Made by a program: the position numbers and the translations under genes
The notes under the pieces: generated by a model
The model's input: the letters and a program-made list of their open reading frames with translations, nothing else
Told to the model about the DNA's origin: nothing
Database searches by the model: none
From: a virus
Virus record (IMG/VR): IMGVR_UViG_3300030329_003698
Span: 13,183 to 77,182 of that record
Reading direction: 5' to 3' (one strand)
DNA: 64,000 bases
Part shown: positions 12,651 to 46,550 of the stretch, piece after piece
Position numbering within the stretch: position 1 is the first letter of the stretch
Layout: every line of letters begins with the position of its first letter

Positions 12651-14615
12651 ATGAAAAAGCTTCTATTCTTAGCGGCTCTATTTCTTGGAGTCGCACTCAA
12701 TACAGCTACAGCGAATGCTCAACGTCTCACCATAGACCAGTCGCTAGAAGCTGTTTGCAGAGTGAACACCAGCAGTGGTCGCGGAAGCGGCACAGTTTTT
12801 GCGGAAGATGAAGAGAATTACTACATTATGACTAATGGTCATGTAGTTGGGAGATCATCAAGAGGAACAGTTGAGTTTTTTCAAGATGGTTATAAGTCTT
12901 CCAACATACCATTCAAGACAGAATACACTGCTTACAAAGATGGCACGGCATTAGACTTAGCAGTTCTATCTGTCAAAAAACAGTTTTTTGGAAGATACCC
13001 TCCCAGAGTAATTCCGCTAGCTCCTCGTGGGACAAAAATTAAAGCTAACGATTTAGTTCAAGCTGGAGGTTGTCCATCAGCACAATGGGCCTGCGCTTGG
13101 AAAGGGAGAGTTCTAAGAAACGCTGGAGCAGTCATAAGCTTTAATGCCGCCCCAATAGGTGGTCAATCAGGAAGCGGAGTACTTATCGTTATTAAAGACG
13201 AGAAAGGCGAAGAACAAACTCGTATCGGCATCCTCTTAGCTTGGAGAGTAGGAGACGGAGCCTACACCGATGACGGCCCAACAGATTATGGTGCTGGTCT
13301 ATCTTTAAAACAAATCTATGCAATTTTAGATGGAAACGGCCAAGGACATCCAATTGAAACATCTTACAAAATTATTTCTGATGTCCCTAAACAGGCCAAG
13401 CCAGAAAGACTTAGTAAGATTTGCCCAAACTGTGGAAAAAAGATTGAAGACCATGTTATCATCCCCAAGGACGGCGGTCTTATGAGAACGGAAAAGGGAG
13501 AGTTTATGTTCTGCCCTGAGCTTAAGTTTGCAGATGGAGGCATTGCAGACACGGCTCGATATTACAAGGGGATAAAAGTTGGAGAGCTATACGATGGAAA
13601 CGGTCTGTTTCCTTGGTGTCCTCTCAACCCGTGTCCTCCTCCCAATCGACCTCAACCACCACAACCCGGACCTCAGCCGCCAAATGGCGGGGGAAATGGG
13701 GGCGGCGGCGGATTTAACCCTTGGCCGGGACGACCAGATCCCGACAATGGTGGACCCACAGATCCTCCCAGCAACGATTTTGAAAAAGAGAAACAACAGT
13801 ATCTTGACAAAATTGCCGAACTTCAAGAAAAGCTTACTAATTTAGAAGCTCTATCTGAAAGCCTAAAGGCCGAATTGTCTGGCACTACTGGAAACTTACA
13901 AAAATCTCAGGATGAAATTAGTGGTCTCAGAGATCTTCTTGGTAGAGTTGAAGGTGAAAAAACTAATTTACAGATTAGAATTACAGAATTAATTAATACA
14001 CTTCAACAAAAAGAGGATCTCTTAGATAATTCAGGACATTACCTAGACGAAGCTACCGGGGGAAATGGAAACACCGTAGAGAACGTTAGTTTTACCCTCG
14101 GTGGAGCTAGCTTGGGAATGCTTGCATTAAAGTATGGTGTCCCCTTTCTACTTAGGAGGAGAAGAAAAAAGAAAAAAGAGGATGACGAAAACGACGATGA
14201 TGGGTATGATATTGATAGGAAACCACCGTCCGACGACGGTTGCGGAGACCACGTACAAAAGCATGTTCATGAACATCAACACTACGGTATTCCAGATTGT
14301 GGACCCGTGAGACCATCAGAACATCCAGAAGAGTACGTTATGGATAGACGAGATCTTCCCAGAGGAAGAAGCGTAGACGAGATGCCTAACGATTTTCTCC
14401 CTTACGGATTAAGGACAACACCAGTATCGACCCCCGGACTAGCACCACAATTGCCACATGTACCATTTGGTTCAAGGAAGTCTATTGGCTCAGAGCAGAT
14501 TATGACTACTCTGGGAGAATTGGTAAACGAGTACGGAGACGATCACACTATGACCGCTTTTCAGATTGACACTTTGTTACGACAAAGACTTAAGAAGAAG
14601 TATAATATCGAGTAA
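12651..14615 (+). CDS. Membrane-anchored trypsin-like serine protease
   Basis: Signal peptide; TNGH, DLAVL, GQSGSG triad; Pro/Gly linker, coiled coil, TM followed by RRRRKKKK. Confidence 0.85.
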   Translation: MKKLLFLAALFLGVALNTATANAQRLTIDQSLEAVCRVNTSSGRGSGTVFAEDEENYYIMTNGHVVGRSSRGTVEFFQDGYKSSNIPFKTEYTAYKDGTALDLAVLSVKKQFFGRYPPRVIPLAPRGTKIKANDLVQAGGCPSAQWACAWKGRVLRNAGAVISFNAAPIGGQSGSGVLIVIKDEKGEEQTRIGILLAWRVGDGAYTDDGPTDYGAGLSLKQIYAILDGNGQGHPIETSYKIISDVPKQAKPERLSKICPNCGKKIEDHVIIPKDGGLMRTEKGEFMFCPELKFADGGIADTARYYKGIKVGELYDGNGLFPWCPLNPCPPPNRPQPPQPGPQPPNGGGNGGGGGFNPWPGRPDPDNGGPTDPPSNDFEKEKQQYLDKIAELQEKLTNLEALSESLKAELSGTTGNLQKSQDEISGLRDLLGRVEGEKTNLQIRITELINTLQQKEDLLDNSGHYLDEATGGNGNTVENVSFTLGGASLGMLALKYGVPFLLRRRRKKKKEDDENDDDGYDIDRKPPSDDGCGDHVQKHVHEHQHYGIPDCGPVRPSEHPEEYVMDRRDLPRGRSVDEMPNDFLPYGLRTTPVSTPGLAPQLPHVPFGSRKSIGSEQIMTTLGELVNEYGDDHTMTAFQIDTLLRQRLKKKYNIE

Positions 14616-34202: not shown

Positions 34203-35215
34203 CTTATATACGAAGCTCATCATATAATAGTTATGATTACTGTCAACAACAGTATTATATAAATTATGTTTTGGGGTTTCCGTCAACATCAGGCAAAAAA
34301 GCCCAACAGGGAACCATCGTCCACAAGGTGATGGAGTGTCTGTCCGCTTGCAAGAAAAGACTACAAAATCTCCCCGAGTCTAGTTTGATGAGCGTGACAG
34401 ATGACGCGCTTGGAAGAATCACATTCACCCACAGCAAACTATACTCAGATGAATTTGTTGATAAATTAGTGGATAAAAGTTTTGAACATTATACTTCTAA
34501 TTGCGTCCATGATTATACAGATAAAGAAGAGAGGGAGTGTCGCAAATGGACGTGGATGGGTCTACATTACAATGACGGCCAATTTGATCCTAGAAACAGA
34601 ACCATTGTAGACACAGAACCACACTTTGACATCGAGATAGATGAACCTTGGGCAGAGTATGACTACACCCTTGATGATGGGACAAGACTAAAAGGTAAAT
34701 TAGCCATCAAGGGGACTATAGATCTAGTTACCGAGGTGGAAAACGGGGTCATAGAAGTTGTAGATTGGAAGACTGGAAGAAGAATTAATTGGGCCACAGG
34801 TGAAGAAAAAGACTATAATAAACTAGAGACTGACCCACAACTGCTTCTCTACTATTATGCTATATCAAAGCTATACCCTGATTACGATCAGGCTATAATG
34901 ACCATTTTCTATATCAAAGACGGAGGACCATTCTCACTGTGCTATGACGATGGGGCTAAAGAGTTATTTCTTAATATGCTAAGAAAGAGATTCAACCAAA
35001 TAAAAAATAACAAATCCCCAATGTTATTGTCTCAGAACCAATCGCACTGGAAGTGTACTAAACTTTGCGATTACTATAAGAACAACTGGGAAGGTACGGA
35101 TACTAATATTTGTAAATATGTACAACAACATATTAAGCAAAACGGTATCGAAAGGACAACGCAAGATTGTACCAAACCAGACTTTAACATAGGGTATTAT
35201 GATGCTCCCGGTTAA
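34193..35215 (+). CDS. PD-(D/E)xK (AddB/Cas4-like) exonuclease
   Basis: GTIVH, GTIDL, VVDWKTG, QLLLY; one N-terminal and three C-terminal Cys. Confidence 0.85.
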
Positions 35216-36146
35216 ATATTTTAACAATAAAGAGATCGCGGAACTACTCTCAGTTCCAGAGTGTGTAGAGCTTGTAGAAGACCTTTTTCTAAATTTTGAC
35301 GACACCCAGATGCCGCCCAAAGTATACATGAATGTTCCCAACGGGGACTTCAGGGCTATGCCAGCGGTTGTGGGCAAAACGGCGGGAATTAAGTGGGCTG
35401 GACTCAACATCAAGGAAGAGGGCAAGATCAACATCTTTGCTATGGTGATGATCAATGATATTGAAACTGGAGACCTGCTAGCAGTTTTAGACGCAGAAAC
35501 ACTTACGGCTATTAGAACGGCGGCTGTGACAGGTGTTGCTACTAGACACATGTCTCCGTCTTATGCCAAAACAGCGGCATTCATAGGTTGTGGACATCAG
35601 ACGCTCAGACAAATTCGGGCGGTAGCGCATGTCAGAGATATAGAAACTATAAAGCTTTTTGACCTGAGTGAAGATAGAGCAAACTCGGTAAAAGAAGCCC
35701 TTCAGTATAAAGACAACTATTATCAGTCGCAGGGAATTGCGGTAGAGGTTTGTGAAAGCCTAGAACAATGTTTGTGGGATTCTGATATTGTTACGACTTT
35801 AACACCATCACGAACACCTTTTATAAAATATAAAGATTTAAAACCTATAGTTCATATTAATGCCGTTGGCGCTGACGCAGAGGGAAAAAGAGAATTGCAC
35901 TCCTGCGTCCTTGAAAATGTTGATATGGTCTCCTACGATGAGTGGGTCCAGTGTTCCCATTCTGGAGAGATACAATACGCCAAGAAAAGCAAAATCTCAC
36001 AGATATGGTCGCCATTATCAGAAATAGTGCAAGGAAGAGTTGAAAAAAGTGGCGCGTTGAGGACTCTGTTTGACGCCACAGGGCTTGCTATAGAAGACGT
36101 TGCCACAGCCCGATATATCTACGAAAAGTTTAACAGGAAAAAATAA
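35199..36146 (+). CDS. Ornithine cyclodeaminase/mu-crystallin family
   Basis: MPA, LTAIRTAA, GCGHQ, HINAVGAD..GKRE, FDATGLAIED. Confidence 0.92.
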   Translation: MMLPVKYFNNKEIAELLSVPECVELVEDLFLNFDDTQMPPKVYMNVPNGDFRAMPAVVGKTAGIKWAGLNIKEEGKINIFAMVMINDIETGDLLAVLDAETLTAIRTAAVTGVATRHMSPSYAKTAAFIGCGHQTLRQIRAVAHVRDIETIKLFDLSEDRANSVKEALQYKDNYYQSQGIAVEVCESLEQCLWDSDIVTTLTPSRTPFIKYKDLKPIVHINAVGADAEGKRELHSCVLENVDMVSYDEWVQCSHSGEIQYAKKSKISQIWSPLSEIVQGRVEKSGALRTLFDATGLAIEDVATARYIYEKFNRKK

Positions 36147-36184: not shown

Positions 36185-38101
36185 ATGCCTATCTGGACAC
36201 CGTTGCATCTACACACTCACTACAGTTTGCTCGACGGACTTTCAAAACCCGCTCAGGTTGCTGCGCGTTGCGAAGAACTTGGGTATGACTCATGCGCCTT
36301 AACAGACCATGGGACAATTTCAGGGTCCATCTCTTTTGTTAGAGCTATGAAAGAGAAAAACATAAAGCCTATTTTGGGTTGTGAGTTCTATCTATGTGAT
36401 CAAGACCCTTGTATTAAAGATAAAACAAACAGACGGCTTAGTCATCTAGTAGTGTTGGCTAAGAATTTTGAAGGATGGAAAAAATTAATAGAGGCCACGT
36501 CAGCTAGCAACGACGAAGAGGTCTTTTACCACAAGCCTCGTCTAGACCTGAACACCTTGGCAGAATACTGTGATGGCAACCTGATAAGTTTTTCGGGCCA
36601 TCTTGGTAGTCAACTTGCAGATATCATCTTTTCAGATGCCAGATCTGCCTATGGAGCTAAAACATACGAAGAAGCAAAATCGTTCGTGGACCCGGACTGG
36701 GTTAGCAAAACTACCCAGCTTGCTGAGAAATACCGCGAGATATTTGGCAAGGATAATTTCTTCCTTGAGATACAACTTATTGACCAAGATATGGCTCCGG
36801 CACAGAGGATTACAGCAGAGGGGCTAAGATATGTAAGTAAGTTAACAGGAATACCCTGTGTAGCTACAGCAGACTCTCATTACCCATCCTCAGAGGATGC
36901 AGCCGATCAGCGCGTTCTACTTTGTTCGTCTCTCAGAACTACGCTAAAAAAAGTCAGCGAGAAGATGAACAACGACGAGGAGATAGGTCTTGGCGGATTC
37001 TTTCGCTCTAACAAATACCACATTCCCACACAAGAAGAAATAGCTGCTATAAATTCCGAGGCTGAGATAGCCAACACCAGAAGAATCAGTGATATGTGCG
37101 AGTCTTATGAAGTCTTGGGAAAACCAATGCTTCCTAAGTTCGACTGTCCTGATGGAATGGGTGAATATGAATATCTAACGCAACTGTGTAGACATGGTTG
37201 GGTGGACAGGCTAGCGTCTCTTGGAAAGGTTGATGACCAGAACAAGAGCAACGAATATTCCGAAAGGATCAAGAAAGAGCTTTCTGTGATAAAAGAGGCA
37301 GACCTCTCTGGATACTTTCTTATCGTCCAAGATATCGTTAACCATGTTAGGCAAGAAAACTGGTTGCCGGGGCCGGGAAGAGGGTCGGCGGCAGGTTGTC
37401 TTATTTCCTATCTGATTGGTATAACAGAAGTAGACCCCATACAGTATAATTTAATTTTTGAGAGATTTTATAACGCTGGTCGGAACACAGAGGGTCATGT
37501 ATCCTTGCCTGATATTGATATCGACGTTCCCACAACAAAGCGGGAACAAGTAATAGAATATATGCGGGTAAAATACGGAAGAGAAAAAGTCGGCCAGATG
37601 GTAACTTTTGGGCGTATGCAGGGTAGAACTTCTATCAAAGAGGTTCTTAGGGTTCACGATGCTTGTAGCTACGACGAGATGAATGAGATAACAAGGAACA
37701 TCCCTTCCGAAGCTGAGATTTCTGACCAGCTACAAGAAATGGACGATCCCTCAATTATTAGATGGGCATTAATGAACACGCCAGACCAATTAAAAGATTG
37801 GTGTAGACTTGAGGATGACGGCACAATTACTGGCGAACTAGGCAAGCTTTTTGAACAAGCTATCAGACTAGAAGGAACATACAAATCTCAGGGCAAGCAT
37901 GCAGCAGGGGTTGTGATCGGCTCTGAGAAACTCAACGAGGTGTGTCCGATGGTCAGAGAAAAAAGAGGACACGAGAAGATTGCGGGATTGGAAATGCAAG
38001 ACTTAGAAGCAATGGGTCATGTAAAGTTTGATGTTCTGGGCATTAGTTTTTTGGACAAAATCATGGGAGTATCTAACCAACTAGACAGTGGAAAAATATA
38101 A
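36185..38101 (+). CDS. dnaE: DNA polymerase III alpha, N-terminal part (PHP, palm, thumb)
   Basis: HLHTHYSLLDG, TDHG, GRGSAAG, FERFYN, PDIDID, KHAAGVV, KFDVLG, then stop. Confidence 0.93.
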   Translation: MPIWTPLHLHTHYSLLDGLSKPAQVAARCEELGYDSCALTDHGTISGSISFVRAMKEKNIKPILGCEFYLCDQDPCIKDKTNRRLSHLVVLAKNFEGWKKLIEATSASNDEEVFYHKPRLDLNTLAEYCDGNLISFSGHLGSQLADIIFSDARSAYGAKTYEEAKSFVDPDWVSKTTQLAEKYREIFGKDNFFLEIQLIDQDMAPAQRITAEGLRYVSKLTGIPCVATADSHYPSSEDAADQRVLLCSSLRTTLKKVSEKMNNDEEIGLGGFFRSNKYHIPTQEEIAAINSEAEIANTRRISDMCESYEVLGKPMLPKFDCPDGMGEYEYLTQLCRHGWVDRLASLGKVDDQNKSNEYSERIKKELSVIKEADLSGYFLIVQDIVNHVRQENWLPGPGRGSAAGCLISYLIGITEVDPIQYNLIFERFYNAGRNTEGHVSLPDIDIDVPTTKREQVIEYMRVKYGREKVGQMVTFGRMQGRTSIKEVLRVHDACSYDEMNEITRNIPSEAEISDQLQEMDDPSIIRWALMNTPDQLKDWCRLEDDGTITGELGKLFEQAIRLEGTYKSQGKHAAGVVIGSEKLNEVCPMVREKRGHEKIAGLEMQDLEAMGHVKFDVLGISFLDKIMGVSNQLDSGKI

Positions 38102-38331
38102 TGGATGAAATCGCAGAGCTTTACAAGACAGTATTAATAGATGGCTCATCTGTGGAATGTCAAAAACTTTCCCTTTGCTGTCTTAACGACTACTATCCTA
38201 GATTTAAAACTTTAAAATACCAAGTAGATTGTGACGACTACAGACTAAAGTTTTCACAAATATATGATGGACCTCAACTTGGTCAAGCTATAAGTAAATA
38301 TCTAGAGATAAAAAGAAAGCTGTATAAATGA
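38101..38331 (+). CDS. Hypothetical protein
   Basis: TAATG-coupled to dnaE-N. Confidence 0.6.
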   Translation: MDEIAELYKTVLIDGSSVECQKLSLCCLNDYYPRFKTLKYQVDCDDYRLKFSQIYDGPQLGQAISKYLEIKRKLYK

Positions 38332-38852
38332 GGCTAGACCACATAGCTTACAGAGTTGCCGACAGAAAAGAGGCTGCCAGCTTTCTAAACTCAATACTTG
38401 AGTATAAGGTTGGAACTGAGTTTGATATCGTTTTTGACGATGGGTCAAAGGCTGAATGCATTGCAATGATCCCTAGAGAAAAAATGGACAATGTCCCACC
38501 AATAGAAGCCGGGGGATTTCGACATCTTGCTCCAGAAATATTCATATCGGACGGGGACGAGAATTCAATTGTTGGTCAGTGGGTTGCCGAAAGAGGTGGT
38601 GTTGGAGGGGTTCACCATTTTGCATACCAAGTGTTTGGAATAGATCGGGTAGTAAAAGATTGGCGAGAAAAAGGCGTAGAATTTCTCACAGAAGACGTAA
38701 TCGACTGTCCTGAAGACGACCTAAAACAAATCTTCACAAAACCCCTTGCACAATTGGGCGGGGTGATCATAGAACTCATAGAGCGGGGCCAAAAGGGTTT
38801 CTGCCAAAACTCAGTAAAAAATCTAATGGAATCTACTAAGGAAGCAAAATGA
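38328..38852 (+). CDS. VOC-fold protein resembling the HPPD C-terminal catalytic domain
   Basis: LDHIAY, GVHHFAY, GVEFL, LKQIFTKP, IELIER, GF. Confidence 0.8.
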   Translation: MRLDHIAYRVADRKEAASFLNSILEYKVGTEFDIVFDDGSKAECIAMIPREKMDNVPPIEAGGFRHLAPEIFISDGDENSIVGQWVAERGGVGGVHHFAYQVFGIDRVVKDWREKGVEFLTEDVIDCPEDDLKQIFTKPLAQLGGVIIELIERGQKGFCQNSVKNLMESTKEAK

Positions 38853-40339
38853 CGACTTATCAAATCGCCAAAGGCATGCATTACATCAACGGTGAGTTTG
38901 TAGAAGGAAACGAAGAAAGTTTATTCGACAGTATTAACCCAGCAACAGGGAGAATCATTGGGTCTTTTCCCCAAGCTACATCAGCAGAGATTTCTTCAGC
39001 GTACAACGCTGCCAAGTCCGCTTTTCCAGAGTGGAGAAACTTAAGTAGATTTCAACGCGGCGATTATTTTCTCAGGGTGGCAGAACTTCTAGAAAACAAC
39101 AAGGAAGATATCGCCGCTATTATTAGCCAAGAAACAGGAAAAGTTTTCAACGAGTCTATTGCAGAGGTCAACGAGGCTTTGCACATGGCTCAATACGCTT
39201 TTAGCACAGGAAGAATGCCTTATGGAGAAGCAATCGCGTCTGAGCTACCTGAAAAAGACGCTTTTATGCTCAGGAAGCCCAAGGGTGTTGTTGCTATTGT
39301 TGCTCCTTTTAACTTTCCTTTCGCTATTGGAGGCTTCTGGTGTGCTGCACCGGCTCTTGTCGAAGGTAATACTGTCGTTCTAAAGCCCAGCGAAGACGTT
39401 GCGTGGGTTGGGCAAATTATTGCGGAGCTATACAAAGAGGCTGGTTTTCCTCCGGGTGTGTTTAACATGGTTCACGGAGATGGAGAGGTTGGCGATAAAT
39501 TGATCCATGAAGATGTAGACCACATTTGCTTTACCGGAAGCGCCGATGTAGGAATGCATGTTCGTAAAGTGTGTGCTGAAAGCTGGCACAAAACTTGTTC
39601 TTGTGAAATGGGAAGTAAATCAGCAGTAATTATCCATGAAGACGCTAATTATGACCTCGCAATGGCAGCATGCCTTGCCAGCGCTTTCAAACTATCTGGT
39701 CAACGTTGCGTGTCTGCTGGCCGGATGATTGTCCACCGATCTCTATACGACAGATTCGCAAAAGATTTTGCTTCTCTTGCTGCTAACGCCGTAACAGGAG
39801 ATCCGTTTGACGACAACACATTTTATGGAAGTCTAATTAATGAACCCCAACTCCAAAGGGTTGAAGGGTTTAACAAAATGGTAGAAGAAGATCCAGAAGC
39901 AGAAGTGCTGTTGATGGGAGAACGCTTGGAGGGCGACGGTTTATTCTTGACGCCCACTGTCTACAAGACTGAGTGGAGAGATGTCCCTTATCTCAAGCAG
40001 GAGGTATTTGGACCTCATGTCTCTATTATTCCTTACGACACAGTAGATGATGCTATTCGCATTTACAATGATACGGACTATGGACTTTCACTAGGAGTAG
40101 TAACGGAGAACTTTAAAATTGCCAGACGTATCCGTAATGAATGTGATTTTGGTCTTGGTTATTGGAACGGCGGGAGCATTGCTGCTGAGAGCCATCTGGG
40201 ATTCGGAGGAGTGAAGAAGTCTGGAAACGGACAACCTAGCGCAGCCCGAACCTTCAGATCTGTTACCCACGAAGTAGCTTGGACTGTAAACCATGGTGAT
40301 TCATTAAACTTCCCACAAGGCATGAACACCGGTAGCTGA
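38849..40339 (+). CDS. NAD(P)-dependent aldehyde dehydrogenase (semialdehyde dehydrogenase candidate)
   Basis: PFNFP, KPSE, FTGS, EMGSK, GQRC, EVFGP, FGGVKKSG. Confidence 0.93.
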   Translation: MTTYQIAKGMHYINGEFVEGNEESLFDSINPATGRIIGSFPQATSAEISSAYNAAKSAFPEWRNLSRFQRGDYFLRVAELLENNKEDIAAIISQETGKVFNESIAEVNEALHMAQYAFSTGRMPYGEAIASELPEKDAFMLRKPKGVVAIVAPFNFPFAIGGFWCAAPALVEGNTVVLKPSEDVAWVGQIIAELYKEAGFPPGVFNMVHGDGEVGDKLIHEDVDHICFTGSADVGMHVRKVCAESWHKTCSCEMGSKSAVIIHEDANYDLAMAACLASAFKLSGQRCVSAGRMIVHRSLYDRFAKDFASLAANAVTGDPFDDNTFYGSLINEPQLQRVEGFNKMVEEDPEAEVLLMGERLEGDGLFLTPTVYKTEWRDVPYLKQEVFGPHVSIIPYDTVDDAIRIYNDTDYGLSLGVVTENFKIARRIRNECDFGLGYWNGGSIAAESHLGFGGVKKSGNGQPSAARTFRSVTHEVAWTVNHGDSLNFPQGMNTGS

Positions 40340-41139
40340 TGACTGAAATACTAGTATGTAAGCCAACATATTTTGGTATAGAATATGAAATAAACCCTTG
40401 GATGAGCATGAATAAAGATGCTGATCCAGAGTTTGCGATGTTTCAATGGGATCGTATGTGCGACCGTCTCAAAAAGGCGGGTGCTAGGATTAGGTACATC
40501 GAACCGCAGCGTGGTTTACCAGACATGGTATTCACAGCTAATGCTGGCTTAGTTTACAAAAACACTGTAATTCTATCAAACTTTAGACACCAAGAACGAC
40601 GAGAAGAAAAAAAACTCTTTAAAGAATGGTTCTTGCGAAATGGGTACAGGGTTGTCGAACTTCCAGAAAGCGTATGTTTTGAGGGAGAAGGAGACGCTCT
40701 TTTTTTTAAGGGTGTGCTGTTTATGGGTTCTGGCTTCAGAACTGACCCAGACGCACATTCGATAATAGGCCGAGCGCTTGATATAGATGTTGTTAGCTGT
40801 GAATTAGTTGACCCAAGGTTCTATCACCTAGACACCTGTTTTCTTCCTTTAAAAGATAGAATTGTTTATTACAGAGATGCGTTTTCTAAGTTCAGTCAAC
40901 ATATAATGATACAAAAGCTGATAGAGATTGGTTACAATAGTGGGACTTTGGATGTCTTAAACGTACACGAGGACCAAGCTAAAGAGTTTATTTGTAACAG
41001 CATTGAGATAGACGAAACTGTTGTAACTCCTACAGATATGTTTTCTCTATCATTTTCTGGTAAAAAGACGCTGGTTAGCAATATGTCAGAATTTATGAAA
41101 TCTGGAGGAGCCGTAAAATGTCTAACTCTCAGACTATAG
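40339..41139 (+). CDS. Amidinotransferase superfamily, ArgZ/Rv2323c-like arginine dihydrolase or DDAH
   Basis: YEINPWM, PDMVFTAN, FEGEGD, FYHLDTC, GGAVKC. Confidence 0.88.
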   Translation: MTEILVCKPTYFGIEYEINPWMSMNKDADPEFAMFQWDRMCDRLKKAGARIRYIEPQRGLPDMVFTANAGLVYKNTVILSNFRHQERREEKKLFKEWFLRNGYRVVELPESVCFEGEGDALFFKGVLFMGSGFRTDPDAHSIIGRALDIDVVSCELVDPRFYHLDTCFLPLKDRIVYYRDAFSKFSQHIMIQKLIEIGYNSGTLDVLNVHEDQAKEFICNSIEIDETVVTPTDMFSLSFSGKKTLVSNMSEFMKSGGAVKCLTLRL

Positions 41140-42326
41140 ACACTTTACAAAAATACATCCTTGTTGACGGATTTCATATTGTAGTAGACACAAGGAGGAG
41201 TGTCGGTAGCTGGATTGTCGATGTAGACATGGGCAATAGATATTTGGACTGCTACTCTCAATTTGCCAGCCAAGCACTGGGCTGGAAAGACCCAGCTATG
41301 ATATCCGCACAAAGGGAGATGGGTCGGGTTGGCATGACAAAGATTGCCAACAGTGATATGTACTCAGAAGAATACGCAAGGTTTGTTGAAAGTTTTGCGT
41401 CCATCACTCCTGATTTTGAACATTACTTTTTTATTGACGGTGGAGCTTTAGCAGTAGAGAACGCGCTAAAAGCCGCGTTTGATTGGAAGGCTCAAAAACT
41501 GGGGTACAGCCACACTGTTGATATCAACAATCTAGACATCTTCCATCTCAAGAATGCATTTCACGGGCGAACAGGATACACCCTTTCTCTCACCAATACA
41601 ACCCCCGAAAAGACCGCGCTTTTTCCCAAGTTTAGATGGACTACCGTAGAGCCTGATTGGGAAGATATTGAACGCCGTATGCATAAAGAGGTTGCTGCCA
41701 TCATCGTGGAACCGATCCAAGGTGAAGGTGGAGACAACCATTTTCCTACAGAGTTTTTCCAGAACCTTAGACGCATAGCAAACGAACACGATTGCCTTCT
41801 TATATTTGATGAAGTGCAAACAGGTATGGGGCTGACCGGAAAGATGTGGGCTTATGAACATTTCGATGTTGTCCCAGACATGATGTGCTTCGGCAAGAAA
41901 ACTCAAGTGTGTGGAGTCTGTTCCACAAACAGGATAGACGAGGTAGAGAGCAATGTCTTCAGTACTTCCGGTCGTGTTAATTCTACTTGGGGTGGCAATA
42001 TTGTGGATATGGTTAGATCTAGATACATAATAGATGCTATTCAACAACGAGATTTAGTAGAAAACGCATCGAAAGTTGGCCAAGATCTTCTTAGGCAGTT
42101 GAGAAAACTTCCAGTAATAGACAATGTTCGTGGTAGAGGTCTTATGATTGCGTTTGACTTGCCGGATGAGCAAACGCGAGACGGGATGATGTCACTTCTA
42201 CAAGAGAACATGCTTGCTCTTAAGTCTGGCAATCGTTCAATTAGACTAAGACCACCGCTGACATTTTCTTTTGAGGATGCGGAGTCGGCAAAGAACTTCA
42301 TCTATGAGGCCATTACAAAACTATGA
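41118..42326 (+). CDS. lat: L-lysine 6-aminotransferase (class III PLP)
   Basis: ILVDG..VVD..RS.GS N-terminus, GALAVENALKAAFDWK, AFHGRTGY, EPIQGEGG, DEVQTG, FGKK, STWGG. Confidence 0.9.
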   Translation: MSNSQTIDTLQKYILVDGFHIVVDTRRSVGSWIVDVDMGNRYLDCYSQFASQALGWKDPAMISAQREMGRVGMTKIANSDMYSEEYARFVESFASITPDFEHYFFIDGGALAVENALKAAFDWKAQKLGYSHTVDINNLDIFHLKNAFHGRTGYTLSLTNTTPEKTALFPKFRWTTVEPDWEDIERRMHKEVAAIIVEPIQGEGGDNHFPTEFFQNLRRIANEHDCLLIFDEVQTGMGLTGKMWAYEHFDVVPDMMCFGKKTQVCGVCSTNRIDEVESNVFSTSGRVNSTWGGNIVDMVRSRYIIDAIQQRDLVENASKVGQDLLRQLRKLPVIDNVRGRGLMIAFDLPDEQTRDGMMSLLQENMLALKSGNRSIRLRPPLTFSFEDAESAKNFIYEAITKL

Positions 42327-43162
42327 AAATAAGAAACGTAGGAATAGTAGGGCAGGGCTTTGTTGGGACGGCTTTAAGAGAAGTGTTCTCGTGTTACAAC
42401 AAAGTGTATACTTATGATAAAGCTCATAAAGATCTCTCCACGCATAAAGGAATATCCGATCTATCATACTCTTGTGATGTGATTTTTGTTTGCGTTCCAA
42501 CGCCAATGAAGCCAGACGGATCATGCGACACATCAATTGTTGAGACGGTTTGTTTAGATGCTTGCAAAACCGGAAGACAAAATATCATTGTCATCAAGTC
42601 TACGGTTCCTCCGGGGACCACCAAAAAAATCAACGAAAAATGCATTGATTCCCAAGTAGTCTTTAACCCTGAGTTTCTTCTGGAAAGAAACGCCACTGAA
42701 GACTTTCGTAATACCAGTCGTGTTATTCTAGGTGGGCCAAGGCCAGCTACGACTAGACTAAGATCATTCTACGCAAACGTTTTCCCCAAAGCCTCCATTG
42801 TAAAGACAGACTCAACTATAGCGGAGTACGTGAAATATCTCACCAATTGCTTCTTATCTGTGAAGGTTTCCCTAGCCAACGAAATCTCGTCGATGTGCAA
42901 GGAGGACGGGGTTGACTACGACAAGGTGATCGAATATGCTATACACGACAACAGATTGGGGGATTCTCACTGGTCGGTTCCCGGCCCGGACGGCAATCTG
43001 GGATTTGGAGGGAGTTGTTTTCCAAAAGATCTCAACGCTTTAATACAACACGCAATAAATGCTGGCGTACCTCCAAACACTATGATCGGCGCTTGGAATA
43101 CCAATCTAACAGTAAGACCACAAAAAGACTGGGAACAGCTTAAAGGAAGGGCTGTACAATGA
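42323..43162 (+). CDS. UDP-glucose/GDP-mannose dehydrogenase family, lacking the C-terminal domain
   Basis: GQGFVG, CVPTP, KSTVPPGT, NPEFL, FGGSCFPKD. Confidence 0.85.
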   Translation: MKIRNVGIVGQGFVGTALREVFSCYNKVYTYDKAHKDLSTHKGISDLSYSCDVIFVCVPTPMKPDGSCDTSIVETVCLDACKTGRQNIIVIKSTVPPGTTKKINEKCIDSQVVFNPEFLLERNATEDFRNTSRVILGGPRPATTRLRSFYANVFPKASIVKTDSTIAEYVKYLTNCFLSVKVSLANEISSMCKEDGVDYDKVIEYAIHDNRLGDSHWSVPGPDGNLGFGGSCFPKDLNALIQHAINAGVPPNTMIGAWNTNLTVRPQKDWEQLKGRAVQ

Positions 43163-44229
43163 GAGCAGCTATAATTGGCGTGGGAAACATGGGTCAAGCT
43201 GTAGCTTGGTCTATGGATGAACTTGGCTTTGATTTAACGCTTGTTGACTCTTCGGAAAAAGCTCTCGAAGAGTGTAACCAGCTTTTACAAAAACCCGCTA
43301 ACCTACAACATAGTTATACTCTAGGGCTTGGCAATCCAGACGTAGTTATATCTTGTCTTCCGTACAGCGAAAACACTTTACTAGCACAGTACTGCATCAA
43401 AAACAGACTAAGGTATTGTGATCTTGGCGGAAACGTAAAAATCAGCGAAGACATCAACGAATTCGCCAGTAGATCCGCTAAAGCCCCAATTATGACTGAC
43501 CTCGGCCTTGCTCCGGGTTTTGTTAACATTGTTCTTGAAGAGTTTTTCAGACAGGCGTCGGAAGCGGAAGACCAACTGAAGACTCCAGAAAATGTCAATG
43601 TTATGGTTGGTGGTATCCCTCAAAGCCGAGTACCATCAGATTATTTTAATTATAACTGCACTTGGTCTGTGGACGGCTTGATCAACGAATATACGGAAGA
43701 CTGCATCCTTGTTCAGAACGGGGTAAAGATTGTATCTCCACCACTCCTTGGTTTAGTAAAACTAATGACAAAAAATCTTGGAGAACTAGAAGCCTTTTAC
43801 ACAAGCGGTGGGTCTGCCCATAGCGTAAATAGAATGATAGAGCTTGGGGTTTCTAATTTTTCATACAGGACATTACGCTGGCCGGGACACCACTGGACCA
43901 TAAATCTACTGATCAATAAATGCGATCTAAATAAAGATCAGCTTAAGCACATATTTACAAAAAACTGTAGCACACCAACAAATGATGACTGTGTTGCTAT
44001 TTATATGAGTGTGGATGACAAGATTCAAGAGATGGTCATATATCCACAAAGAGGGTTTACAGCCATGCAAGTTGGCACTGGATACTCAGCCGCAGTAGTA
44101 GCCTCTCTACTTGCGAGGGGAGACTTCGACGACAAGAAGACTGTAAAATATGAAGACATAAATTTTGAAACTTTTACTGAAGTTCTAGACAAACTTGTAA
44201 GCACAGAGAACGATAATGAATTACAATGA
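43159..44229 (+). CDS. Saccharopine dehydrogenase / lysine 6-dehydrogenase family
   Basis: GVGNMG, DLGG, GLAPG, WSVDGLINEY, EAFYTSGG, RTLRWPGH. Confidence 0.88.
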   Translation: MRAAIIGVGNMGQAVAWSMDELGFDLTLVDSSEKALEECNQLLQKPANLQHSYTLGLGNPDVVISCLPYSENTLLAQYCIKNRLRYCDLGGNVKISEDINEFASRSAKAPIMTDLGLAPGFVNIVLEEFFRQASEAEDQLKTPENVNVMVGGIPQSRVPSDYFNYNCTWSVDGLINEYTEDCILVQNGVKIVSPPLLGLVKLMTKNLGELEAFYTSGGSAHSVNRMIELGVSNFSYRTLRWPGHHWTINLLINKCDLNKDQLKHIFTKNCSTPTNDDCVAIYMSVDDKIQEMVIYPQRGFTAMQVGTGYSAAVVASLLARGDFDDKKTVKYEDINFETFTEVLDKLVSTENDNELQ

Positions 44230-44896
44230 TATTTGCGTTTTCGATTTTGAGACCGGGAGTAGAAACCCACACACAACACAGCCAATACAAGTGGCTGCTG
44301 TAATGATTCATGGCAGAAAACTGACCATACAACCAGACGGATATTTCGAATCTCTTATAAAACCAATGGGAGATGAAAAAGCTGTGGCCGCTGGTGTGGA
44401 CCCGCTAGAAGACGAGGCTCTTCAAATAAACGGCAAGACCAGAGCAGAGCTTTCAAAAGCTCCACACGCCAAAACTGTGTGGGAAAGATTTGCAAACTTT
44501 GTAAACAAGTTTAACTACAAAGGGGGTTCTTGGACCGCCCCCATAGCCGCTGGTCACAATATAGACAATTTCGATATGATTATTGCCGAAAGACTATGCA
44601 AATCATACGGACCAATAGATAAGAAGAGGAATGTTCAGGCCGTCTTTCATCCAATCCATAGGCTAGACTTGATGAGAGAGGTTTGGATGTGGACAGAAAA
44701 TAACAAAGACATCAGAAGTATAAGCATGGACTCTATTAGAGACTGGCTTGGTATGTCTAAAGAAAATGCCCACGACGCCCTACAAGATGTAAAAGACACC
44801 GCCGCTGTATTGATTAAGTTTATGAAACTTTATCGTCATTACGCACCCAAGGTTAAGTTTGAAAAGGCTTTTGCCAATGACGGATTACCGGTTTGA
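44216..44896 (+). CDS. DEDDh 3'-5' exonuclease (DnaQ/epsilon-like)
   Basis: FDFETG, GHNIDNFD, HDALQD. Confidence 0.9.
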   Translation: MNYNDICVFDFETGSRNPHTTQPIQVAAVMIHGRKLTIQPDGYFESLIKPMGDEKAVAAGVDPLEDEALQINGKTRAELSKAPHAKTVWERFANFVNKFNYKGGSWTAPIAAGHNIDNFDMIIAERLCKSYGPIDKKRNVQAVFHPIHRLDLMREVWMWTENNKDIRSISMDSIRDWLGMSKENAHDALQDVKDTAAVLIKFMKLYRHYAPKVKFEKAFANDGLPV

Positions 44897-46550
44897 TTGC
44901 GGTTGTAGCTTCTCTGTTAAAGATCCGAAGCACCCTATTACTCTATCCCAAACGGGTTTGCCATCTGTAGACTTTAAAATAAGAGAGTCTCCATATGATT
45001 GTAGAATGACTTGGGACTTAATCAAGGAAGGGAAAACAAAAGGTGTATTTCAACTTGAAAGTAATTTAGGAAAATCTTGGGCAAAAAGGATTCGCCCAAA
45101 CAACATCGAAGAATTAGCCGCTCTAACGGCCTTGATCAGACCCGGATGCCTCAAGGCAATCATTGACGGCAAGTCGATGACTCAGAGGTACGTCGACAGA
45201 AAGAATGGCACAGAGGAGTTAACGTACTTACACGACTCCCTAGAGCCAATATTGGAGTCCACGCAAGGGGTTCTGGTATACCAAGAGCAGAGCATGCAGA
45301 TAGCGCAAGTTATCGCGGGTTTTGATCTTCAACAAGCCGACTCTTTAAGAAAGGCTATTGGTAAGAAAAACGCCAGCTTGATGTCAGAGGTAAAGGATTC
45401 TTTTTTAGACGGGGCCGACAGCAAAGGACTCGTTACTAGAGAAATTGCGGAAGAAATTTTTGGGTGGATTGAGAAATCCAACAGGTACGCTTTCAATAAA
45501 AGCCACGCCGTTTCTTATGCCATTTGTGGATACTGGTCAGCTTACGCTAAAGCTCATTTCCCAATTAATTTCTACTGTAACTACCTCTATTTTGCTGACG
45601 GAAAACAAGATACACAATCCGAGATCAGAGAGGTTGTGAGTGACGCTAGAATTCACGGCGTTGAGATAGCCGCACCCTCCATAGTCAATATGAACCACAA
45701 ATTTAATATAAACAATAGGATTATACACTTTGGGTTTAATGACATTAAGTCTGTCGGGGCAAAGCAGGTTGAAAAGCTGGTCTCTACAATTTCTGAGATC
45801 GAAGAATTTCTAGAAAAGCCTGTTGTGGATTGGTCTTGGTATCAATTCCTGATAAATGCCTCTCACAAGATTAATAGTAAAGTTTGCAACGCCCTAGCGT
45901 CTGTTGGGGCGTTTTCTTGTTTTGGTATCTCCCGAAACAGAATGATCTACGAGATTGATGTTTGGTCCAAGCTAACGGACAAAGAAAGAGCTTGGATAAT
46001 AGAACGGCAAAAGAGTTGGGACGAGATAATACCAGCTTTGACAGAACTGTCTCCTACCAAAAAAATGGGTGGCGGAACGTTTAATGGTACAAGAAGCGAG
46101 ATTGTCAGAAGTCTTGTTTTGATGCTGGAAGACCCGCCATACTCTCTTGACGATTCTCCAAGCTGGTCTTCTAGGGTTGAAAAAGAATATCTCGGAATAC
46201 CCATTAGTTATTCTGAAGTTGATTCCTGTGACACCAGTGCGGCCACCGCCACTTGCAAAGAGTTTTTCGATGGAATCAAAGGTGATGTCACCTTGGCTGT
46301 CCAGATTATAGACCTGAAAGAATATAAATTAAAAAAGGGTCAAAATAAGGGCAGGAATATGGCTTTTCTTACGGTTGAAGATGGTACAGGATCTATTGAT
46401 AATGTGACAGTCTTTTGTGATGATTGGGAAAAACACAACACAACTTTATACGAAGGAAACACCGTTTTGTTGTACGGAGGTCGCTCAGACAGATCGCAAG
46501 CCAACAGAGGAAACGACGGTTTTGTTGTCAAAAAAGTTGTGCAAATCTGA
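44877..46550 (+). CDS. dnaE: DNA polymerase III alpha, C-terminal part (fingers, HhH, OB)
   Basis: GVFQLES, ALIRPG, GVLVYQEQ, LRKAIGKK, YAFNKSHA, IKSVG, MAFLTVED. Confidence 0.93.
   Translation: MTDYRFDCGCSFSVKDPKHPITLSQTGLPSVDFKIRESPYDCRMTWDLIKEGKTKGVFQLESNLGKSWAKRIRPNNIEELAALTALIRPGCLKAIIDGKSMTQRYVDRKNGTEELTYLHDSLEPILESTQGVLVYQEQSMQIAQVIAGFDLQQADSLRKAIGKKNASLMSEVKDSFLDGADSKGLVTREIAEEIFGWIEKSNRYAFNKSHAVSYAICGYWSAYAKAHFPINFYCNYLYFADGKQDTQSEIREVVSDARIHGVEIAAPSIVNMNHKFNINNRIIHFGFNDIKSVGAKQVEKLVSTISEIEEFLEKPVVDWSWYQFLINASHKINSKVCNALASVGAFSCFGISRNRMIYEIDVWSKLTDKERAWIIERQKSWDEIIPALTELSPTKKMGGGTFNGTRSEIVRSLVLMLEDPPYSLDDSPSWSSRVEKEYLGIPISYSEVDSCDTSAATATCKEFFDGIKGDVTLAVQIIDLKEYKLKKGQNKGRNMAFLTVEDGTGSIDNVTVFCDDWEKHNTTLYEGNTVLLYGGRSDRSQANRGNDGFVVKKVVQI

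Follow-up and report, generated by a model that had tools for sequence, protein, structure and literature searches.

The VOC gene and its product

The sequence analysed here, called the window, is a 64,000-nucleotide stretch (positions 13,183 to 77,182) of the 77-kb IMG/VR virus record IMGVR_UViG_3300030329_003698, which stems from a marine phage and is estimated to be about 51% complete. On the forward strand of the window, the open reading frame (ORF) at 38328-38852 has a stop-free translation of 174 amino acids (aa), a single-domain VOC protein termed P0001. The best explanation of the data is that P0001 is a single-domain VOC metalloenzyme that corresponds to the isolated catalytic domain of 4-hydroxyphenylpyruvate dioxygenase (HPPD), hydroxymandelate synthase (HMS) and HglS. 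An HglS-like reaction, the oxidative decarboxylation of 2-oxoadipate to 2-hydroxyglutarate, is tentatively assigned to it. An initial annotation, made from the sequence alone, had described the same ORF as a half-size HPPD-like dioxygenase in a lysine-degradation context, and its interpretation as a whole is partly supported by the analysis presented below.

P0001 is the product of a real conserved gene and not of a chance ORF, as indicated by its Pfam scores, its relatives and a confident structural model. The protein passes the gathering cut-offs of Glyoxalase_4 (PF13669, 28.7 bits, cut-off 27) and Glyoxalase (PF00903, 23.7 bits, cut-off 20.6), and its AlphaFold2 model (pLDDT 87.5) consists of two beta-alpha-beta-beta-beta modules followed by a C-terminal helix. 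The passed cut-offs and the paired modules place it in the VOC superfamily. The six motifs that had been listed in the order of the HPPD C-terminal domain are all present: DHIA (residues 4-7), GVHHFA (94-99), GVEFL (116-120), LKQIFTKP (132-139), ELIER (149-153) and GF (157-158). The lack of an N-terminal domain could also be verified. Met1 opens strand 1 of the model, leaving no room for the two tandem VOC domains of HPPD and HMS, and the upstream gene is an unrelated ORF of 76 aa (38101-38331, forward strand, function unassigned). This small ORF is located between the N-terminal part of the DNA polymerase III alpha gene and the VOC gene and overlaps both; its stop overlaps the start of the VOC gene, the stop of which in turn overlaps the start of an aldehyde dehydrogenase (ALDH) gene (ATGA). 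The 76-aa ORF contains five Cys. In L031-L034 and L041, which are close relatives, an ORF of 75 aa is found in its place, and these sequences do not cluster with that of the window.

A search for fused forms revealed two singletons as the only longer members of the family, neither of them with an informative extra domain. A separate protein of 352 aa, P0260, matches the family profile with its C-terminal half (residues 245-349, 2e-21) and may be a two-domain relative bridging the small VOC family and full-size HPPD.

The structure prediction for two copies of P0001 supports a homodimer, with an ipSAE of 0.85 against 0.00 for the best control, at least 80% of contacts shared between runs and a pLDDT of at least 78. 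This mark is attained by 20 of 30 solved pairs and by 1 of 23 single chains. Strands 1 and 5 (with their outer face), helix 1 and the loop 140-146 form the predicted interface. This result may stem from the likeness of P0001 to solved dimers of the methylmalonyl-CoA epimerase (MMCE) and glyoxalase I (GlxI) type.

Relationship to known VOC enzymes

The homology to HPPD was established with hhalign, in which the family alignment of 232 unique members, also used for the conservation analysis, was compared with two real HPPD genes from genomes that carry the small VOC protein as well. Residues 1-174 align with HPPD positions 207-399, i.e. the entire C-terminal catalytic domain, tail included (probability 98.5%, E 3e-14), and the proposed half-size HPPD-like catalytic domain is thereby borne out over the whole length of the protein. 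The whole-protein model of HPPD and HMS (TIGR01263) gives 38.3 bits against a cut-off of 277, with only the C-terminal part matching (residues 132-170 on positions 304-343 of 353). The MMCE model (TIGR03081) is matched over the full length, with 37.4 bits against a cut-off of 114.95. Phmmer and profile searches of the PDB returned MMCE (1JC4) and the human and rat HPPDs at similar E-values. For E. coli glyoxalase I (GloA) the hhalign probability was 84%, and no GlxI model was found among the NCBIfam matches of P0001 at E-values up to 1. The HglS family model, PF07063 (DUF1338), was not matched in the Pfam search.

The fold comparison with HPPD, HMS and HglS that the initial annotation had proposed was carried out with VIA-align, a search independent of Foldseek. 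HMS (2r5v) ranked first, with a Z of 17.5 and a root-mean-square deviation of 2.5 over 157 residues, followed by the rice HglS (FLO7) in complex with 2-oxoadipate (6w1k, Z 13.5 over 161 residues) and, in third place, by MMCE (Z 13.2); a GlxI reached Z 11.8 and extradiol enzymes Z 8-9. The query-normalised TM of Foldseek was 0.72-0.75 for HMS and HPPD versus about 0.6 for MMCE. With HMS first and HglS second, the comparison favours a barrel of the HMS/HPPD/HglS type.

HglS, known also as YdcJ and FLO7 (DUF1338, PF07063), has a VOC-type barrel in common with P0001, a strand with the motif E-x3-R-G, which in YdcJ reads GEIEQRG, and probably the placement of the strand-1 His-x3-Arg. However, HglS is about 450 aa long compared with 174 aa, and its helical insertions and mobile 402/403 loop are absent from P0001, which carries an HPPD-type tail instead. 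MMCE (TIGR03081; 1JC4, 6WF6) resembles P0001 in its similar size, single VOC domain and dimeric state, gives the best HMMER and Foldseek E-values, and has the motifs IDH, GxHHxA and xELxE in common with it. In contrast to MMCE, P0001 possesses the HPPD-type tail, the QIFT motif and a 20-aa insertion (residues 49-69). GlxI likewise has no HPPD-type tail, and the surroundings of the P0001 gene show no glutathione-related context.

Predicted active site

Arg9, Glu70, His96, His97, Gln134, Phe136, Glu149 and Arg153 show no variation among the 232 family members. His5 is conserved in 99% of them, and the tail GFC..(S/N)V..LM is invariant or nearly so. The plausible His/His/Glu triad named in the initial annotation can be specified as His5, His97 and Glu149, predicted metal ligands which fall, by alignment, on the known ligand positions. 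They align with His12, His91 and Glu141 of MMCE; in HPPD their counterparts are the His of IDH, His266 of the human enzyme and the Glu of FFEIIQR. The same His/His/Glu arrangement is found at the aligned positions of HMS. The first ligand and the Arg at the His+4 position belong to strand 1 (DHIAYR; His5-Arg9 codons at 38340-38354, forward strand, as are all codon positions given here). The second would be provided by strand 5 (GVHHFA; His96-His97 codons at 38613-38618), and the carboxylate ligand, together with the invariant Arg153, by strand 8 (ELIER; Glu149-Arg153 codons at 38772-38786).

Two further elements link the protein to HPPD. LKQIFTKP (residues 132-139, codons at 38721-38744) aligns with LLQIFTKP of human and bacterial HPPDs. 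Residues 157-170 (GFCQNSVKNLMEST, codons at 38796-38837), which include the helix 160-169 of the model and the invariant Cys159, align with the HPPD tail GFGKGNFKALFEAIE, as indicated by TIGR01263 and the model; relative to the gating helix GFG.GNF..LF, a G is replaced by C and an F by V. Neither the QIFT motif nor the GF..N..L tail, both hallmarks of HPPD, has a match in MMCE or GlxI, which supports the oxygenase-type reading. In summary, P0001 has in common with HPPD and HMS the C-terminal domain homology over its full length, the top structural match, the aligned ligands, QIFTKP, the E-x-I-x-R-G strand and a C-terminal helix beginning with GF. The differences are: (i) the N-terminal VOC domain is absent and a homodimer is predicted instead; (ii) the Asn of HPPD at His+4 is the invariant Arg9 in P0001, and HPPD Gln265 is His96; (iii) the GFG of the tail is GFC and the ring-stacking Phe is Val163; (iv) P0001 has three conserved Cys.

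Arg9 may have a parallel in HglS. The HglS triad consists of His70, His226 and Glu294, while Arg74 (FLO7 Arg64) anchors 2-oxoadipate by its distal carboxylate and determines the specificity (PMC7286885). In the E. coli YdcJ sequence the corresponding segment reads ERH68GAIR72V. The VIA-align alignments start with model residue 1 on FLO7 residue 56 and on YdcJ residue 64, and therefore strand 1 would put His5 on the metal-binding His and Arg9 on FLO7 Arg64 and YdcJ Arg72. This match is judged from the alignment start points in two DUF1338 structures, and GloA has the same His-x3-Arg spacing.

The position of the catalytic base of P. shermanii MMCE, Glu48, is occupied by Cys44 (codon at 38457-38459), which is conserved in 99% of the members. 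One of the two catalytic glutamates of MMCE is thereby lost, an epimerase of the MMCE type is disfavoured for this reason, and the MMCE function was rejected.

Gene neighbourhood in the phage genomes

The window carries the DNA polymerase III alpha gene in two parts, the N-terminal one with the PHP domain and polymerase core at 36185-38101 and the C-terminal one with the fingers, HhH and OB at 44859-46550. Eight genes are located between the two halves, and the same layout is seen in L031, L033, L034 and L041. In L046 and L104, nothing but an exonuclease gene, the VOC gene and some small ORFs separates the halves. In the window, the 76-aa ORF and the VOC gene are followed, on the forward strand, by the translationally coupled ALDH gene (38849-40339; Pfam Aldedh, 435.7 bits), an arginine dihydrolase-like gene of the ArgZ N-domain type (40339-41139; NF052232, 254 bits, cut-off 450) and a class III aminotransferase gene of the LAT family (L-lysine 6-transaminase-like, 41118-42326), which scores 484.2 bits with TIGR03251 (cut-off 520.8) and 228 with the next family. 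Next comes a UDP-glucose/GDP-mannose dehydrogenase-like protein of 279 aa (42323-43162) reduced to its N-terminal and central domains, the C-terminal domain being gone. Since the truncated protein recurs in 15 related loci, the truncation is not a fresh one. The set continues with an L-lysine 6-dehydrogenase-like (LysDH-like) gene of the saccharopine dehydrogenase fold (43159-44229, forward strand; Pfam Sacchrp_dh_C and Sacchrp_dh_NADP), and ends with an exonuclease gene before the C-terminal polymerase part. An enzyme of the ornithine cyclodeaminase/mu-crystallin (OCD) family (35199-36146, forward strand; PF02423, 228.6 bits) is an optional component of the set.

The best PDB match of the LysDH-like protein is 3ABI, at 4e-19 with the single sequence and 1.7e-39 with the profile; the profile reaches 3e-19 for AASS and 3e-4 for carboxyspermidine dehydrogenase. 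The structure 3ABI is an L-lysine 6-dehydrogenase (PMC10413350). A role of the LysDH-like enzyme in polyamine metabolism was rejected on the difference between 1.7e-39 for the lysine dehydrogenase and 3e-4 for carboxyspermidine dehydrogenase. Directly upstream of the LysDH-like gene, a small pyruvoyl protein of the AdoMet-decarboxylase fold is encoded in 7 loci (e.g. L077:8504-8884) and a class I fructose-bisphosphate aldolase in 8 loci.

The phage ALDH misses every NCBIfam cut-off and scores best with models of 2-oxoglutarate-semialdehyde dehydrogenase (330 bits), while HpaE gives 316 bits. An Arg precedes its catalytic Cys (GQRCVS). An Arg in this position is typical of aldehyde dehydrogenases acting on anionic aldehydes, and the motif of the phage enzyme would fit such a substrate.

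A VOC dioxygenase gene followed by a semialdehyde dehydrogenase gene is also the classical order of a meta-cleavage pair. In that case P0001 would cleave aromatic rings as an extradiol dioxygenase of a single domain, leaving the ring-fission semialdehyde to be oxidised by the ALDH encoded downstream. The score of the ALDH with HpaE and the presence of extradiol enzymes in the fold list are in line with this assignment, but these matches are far weaker than those to HMS and HPPD, the neighbouring genes encode enzymes of amino-acid and not of aromatic metabolism, and the HPPD tail is left unexplained. The PROSITE signature that precedes the glutamate ligand of type I extradiol enzymes, Y-x2-[DENTA]-P-x-[GP]-x2,3-E, is absent from P0001, in which residues 136-149 read FTKPLAQLGGVIIE. 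The extradiol function was rejected on this ground, and the whole assignment is considered extremely improbable.

The recurrence of the neighbours was determined by clustering the ORFs of 82 loci, made up of the window itself, L028 and a further 80 related loci of viral origin. In 58 of these, the VOC gene has the ALDH gene directly behind it in the same orientation, and the LysDH-like gene is found in 45, mostly a few kb downstream. The arginine dihydrolase and LAT genes occur in 12 loci and the OCD gene in 11. Most likely, the phage gene set breaks down lysine and arginine.

Distribution of the family and cellular neighbourhoods

In a collection of 5.8 billion proteins, more than 1353 relatives of P0001 with a length of 160-215 aa were found, and the family forms 79 clusters at 50% identity (E < 1e-30). 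Marine viral contigs carry it frequently, whereas it is rarely met in cells. The ESM Atlas clusters of the family are 89-100% viral. Among cellular genomes it was detected in a single one of 301 Bacteroidota, namely the seed genome, in 2 of 61 relatives of G001 and in 2 of 121 Planctomycetota. Because the family is so rare in cells, a comparison of its phyletic pattern with that of HglS is uninformative. No family for P0001 was found in PHROGs, and its matches in the collection of deposited phages are two uncultured metagenomic phages only. Literature searches on the phage module, on HPPD in phages and on the Bacteroidota lysine route returned nothing relevant, and no paper describing the module was found.

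Two of the loci assigned to bacterial metagenome-assembled genomes (MAGs) resemble viral ones. L028, a contig binned as a Pseudomonadales MAG, has the gene order of the viral locus L073 and is therefore probably a phage contig binned into the MAG. In L002, from a SAR202 MAG, the VOC gene is followed by a GMP-reductase-like gene, as in the viral loci L047-L049. Clustering of the neighbours in 27 loci from bacterial assemblies revealed no context recurring across phyla, with the exception of a Bacteroidota lysine cluster and an enolase-superfamily neighbour in Gemmataceae and Melainabacteria.

The Bacteroidota cluster, found in two genomes (L008, L009), consists of the VOC gene, an ALDH gene and the gene of a 445-aa saccharopine dehydrogenase in a row. 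The ALDH passes the NCBIfam equivalog for L-piperideine-6-carboxylate (P6C) dehydrogenase with 766.6 bits (cut-off 730) and has only 30% identity to the phage ALDH. This cluster is an independent instance of the VOC/ALDH/dehydrogenase trio of the phages. The lysine context of the VOC gene, already put forward in the initial annotation, is supported by the LAT-family transaminase, the LysDH-like enzyme and the ALDH link that recurs in phages and Bacteroidota.

The second recurrent neighbour was seen in the loci L020:5626-8531, L021 and L024:6742-8534. In Gemmataceae, the VOC gene comes after genes for an arginine dihydrolase and an enolase-superfamily enzyme, and in a Melainabacteria MAG an enolase-superfamily gene (DgcA-like racemase) directly precedes it. 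The Gemmataceae arrangement agrees with a reading in which the same oxidative decarboxylation and hydroxylation acts on another 2-oxoacid, namely 2-oxoglutarate, 2-oxopimelate or one derived from arginine or ornithine, and serves an arginine branch or a host metabolite. Such a role would also suit the arginine dihydrolase and OCD-family enzyme of the window, the preference of the phage ALDH for 2-oxoglutarate-semialdehyde dehydrogenase models and the roughly one quarter of loci in which the VOC gene has neither the ALDH nor the LysDH-like gene. Against it stand the 12 of 82 loci with arginine genes compared with 58 for the ALDH and 45 for the LysDH-like gene, and the independent Bacteroidota cluster, which is lysine-specific. 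The two inward-facing invariant Arg suit a dicarboxylate and leave its chain length unfixed. The same chemistry on such another 2-oxoacid is regarded as unlikely.

HglS was not found in five genomes bearing the VOC gene. Its own neighbourhood was sampled in eleven loci. One of them, L139, combines HglS in an operon with a LysR regulator, an FAD-linked oxidase of the D-2-hydroxyglutarate dehydrogenase type, a P6C dehydrogenase-like ALDH, a transaminase of class I/II and an oxidase of the DAO type. Within cells, HglS can thus stand next to such an ALDH, a place taken by the small VOC protein in the phages and in L008. Both proteins are thus linked in their genomes to a dehydrogenase of P6C or aminoadipate semialdehyde. 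Since G001 and G002 possess a normal HPPD alongside the small VOC protein, the latter is no replacement for HPPD. In the ESM Atlas, a cluster of 226-aa Nucleocytoviricota proteins with the HGLS domain (PF07063) was seen (score 0.91); as a lead only, giant viruses may encode short forms of HglS.

Proposed function

In the route tentatively proposed for the phage, the LysDH-like enzyme or the LAT-like transaminase would act on lysine and yield aminoadipate semialdehyde, which the coupled ALDH would turn into 2-aminoadipate. A host transaminase would then give 2-oxoadipate, the VOC enzyme would turn it into 2-hydroxyglutarate, and a host dehydrogenase would produce 2-oxoglutarate. The whole would be a nitrogen-releasing breakdown of lysine that the VOC enzyme finishes. 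Fe(II) would be bound by His5, His97 and Glu149, and the 2-oxo-dicarboxylate would chelate it with the oxygens of its 2-oxo group and C1 carboxylate. The far carboxylate of the substrate may be gripped by Arg9, possibly with the help of Arg153, and O2 would drive decarboxylation and hydroxylation beneath the HPPD-type C-terminal helix. This HglS-like reaction, performed by a minimal dimeric HPPD-type domain, is put forward as the leading reading, though a little short of probable, with 2-oxoadipate as the likeliest substrate. The fold, the homology to the HPPD C-terminal domain, the positions of the conserved residues and the gene linkage are shown by the analysis; the metal, the use of O2, the substrate, the product and the steps supplied by the host are inferred.

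A number of observations weigh against the proposal. With regard to the pathway, the phage ALDH scores 275 bits with the P6C dehydrogenase model, the cut-off of which is 730, and the VOC gene occurs without the ALDH in 24 of the 82 loci. The initial annotation had reported that no aminoadipate transaminase lies in the window, and this holds even for the whole 77-kb record, from which a class I/II aminotransferase (2-aminoadipate transaminase) is absent, as are HglS and the FAD-linked oxidase of the 2-hydroxyglutarate dehydrogenase step. For the steps from 2-aminoadipate to 2-oxoadipate and from 2-hydroxyglutarate to 2-oxoglutarate, the phage would depend on the host, unless the enzymes are encoded in the half of its genome that the record lacks. 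One genome, G481 (a Bacteriovoracaceae MAG, that of L005; locus L127), has both the VOC gene and an ORF of 278 aa with an HGLS domain. With regard to the protein, homology to HglS was not detected by sequence (hhalign 0.4% against YdcJ and 1.3% against a profile of 10 HglS sequences), and MMCE appears as close to P0001 as HPPD does when sequences alone are compared. The conserved Cys44, Cys127 and Cys159 have no counterpart in HPPD or HglS. E. coli GloA begins with MRLLHTMLRV (MRL.H...RV) and contains IELIE; as it has these elements in common with P0001, Arg9 and ELIE are not unique to oxygenases. Finally, the invariant Glu70 (codon at 38535-38537, at the start of strand 4, PEIF; model strand 70-76) probably lies at or beside the fourth ligand position of VOC enzymes, as in GlxI and MMCE. 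It is found at, or one residue off, the canonical second ligand position in sequence order, that of GloA Glu56 (in VIELTYNWG) and MMCE Gln65. Gapless alignments anchored on Ser80 and Trp85 set MMCE Gln65 on Ile71, and conservation favours Glu70. A His/Glu/His/Glu set, a typical feature of VOC enzymes that act without O2, would leave O2 no free position beside a bidentate 2-oxoacid.

The Glu70 position leads to a different reading, in which P0001 is an O2-independent Lewis-acid enzyme of the GlxI or MMCE type that isomerises, epimerises or tautomerises a carboxylate-bearing intermediate. An enolate would be stabilised at the site formed by His5, Glu70, His97 and Glu149, with Ni, Co, Zn or Mn as the metal, and a proton would be transferred by Cys44 or a Glu acting as the base. 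All four canonical VOC ligand positions would perhaps be filled in this way, with the possible His/Glu/His/Glu set of GlxI, and the motifs common with GloA, its hhalign probability and the E-value ranking of MMCE are consistent with such an enzyme. The HH doublet is the same as in MMCE, and a nearly invariant Cys stands at the position of the MMCE base. On the other hand, the HPPD-type tail and QIFT are foreign to GlxI and MMCE, the base Glu48 is lost, the MMCE model score remains at 37 bits versus 115, and the Z of HMS is well above those of MMCE and GlxI. Furthermore, known lysine and arginine catabolism has no step in need of such an isomerase. On balance, Lewis-acid chemistry of this kind is doubtful, yet a realistic contender.

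The residues that set the family apart could also belong to an enzyme outside the categories of HglS analogue, glyoxalase and epimerase, a VOC enzyme spread by viruses and with a chemistry of its own on a lysine-derived dicarboxylate or cyclic imine. The His/Glu/His/Glu site, the two inward-facing Arg and the three conserved Cys would be covered by an HPPD-type lid, and a species such as aminoadipate semialdehyde or a piperideine carboxylate might, for example, be rearranged there without O2. This is judged distinctly unlikely.

Significance

If P0001 is a working 2-oxoacid dioxygenase, as tentatively proposed here, no smaller member of the HPPD/HMS/HglS class would be known. With the catalytic domain alone acting as a homodimer, it would serve as a model for the origin of the two-domain oxygenases. 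It would also represent a second, non-homologous solution to the HglS step of bacteria and plants. Abundant ocean phages would then carry a near-complete route that removes both nitrogens of lysine and returns the carbon as 2-oxoglutarate. Should the enzyme be O2-independent instead, it would mark an unknown step beside the oxidation of aminoadipate semialdehyde, and an enzyme with a chemistry of its own would amount to a previously unknown step of amino-acid breakdown during infection. Either way, the P0001 family is large and conserved.

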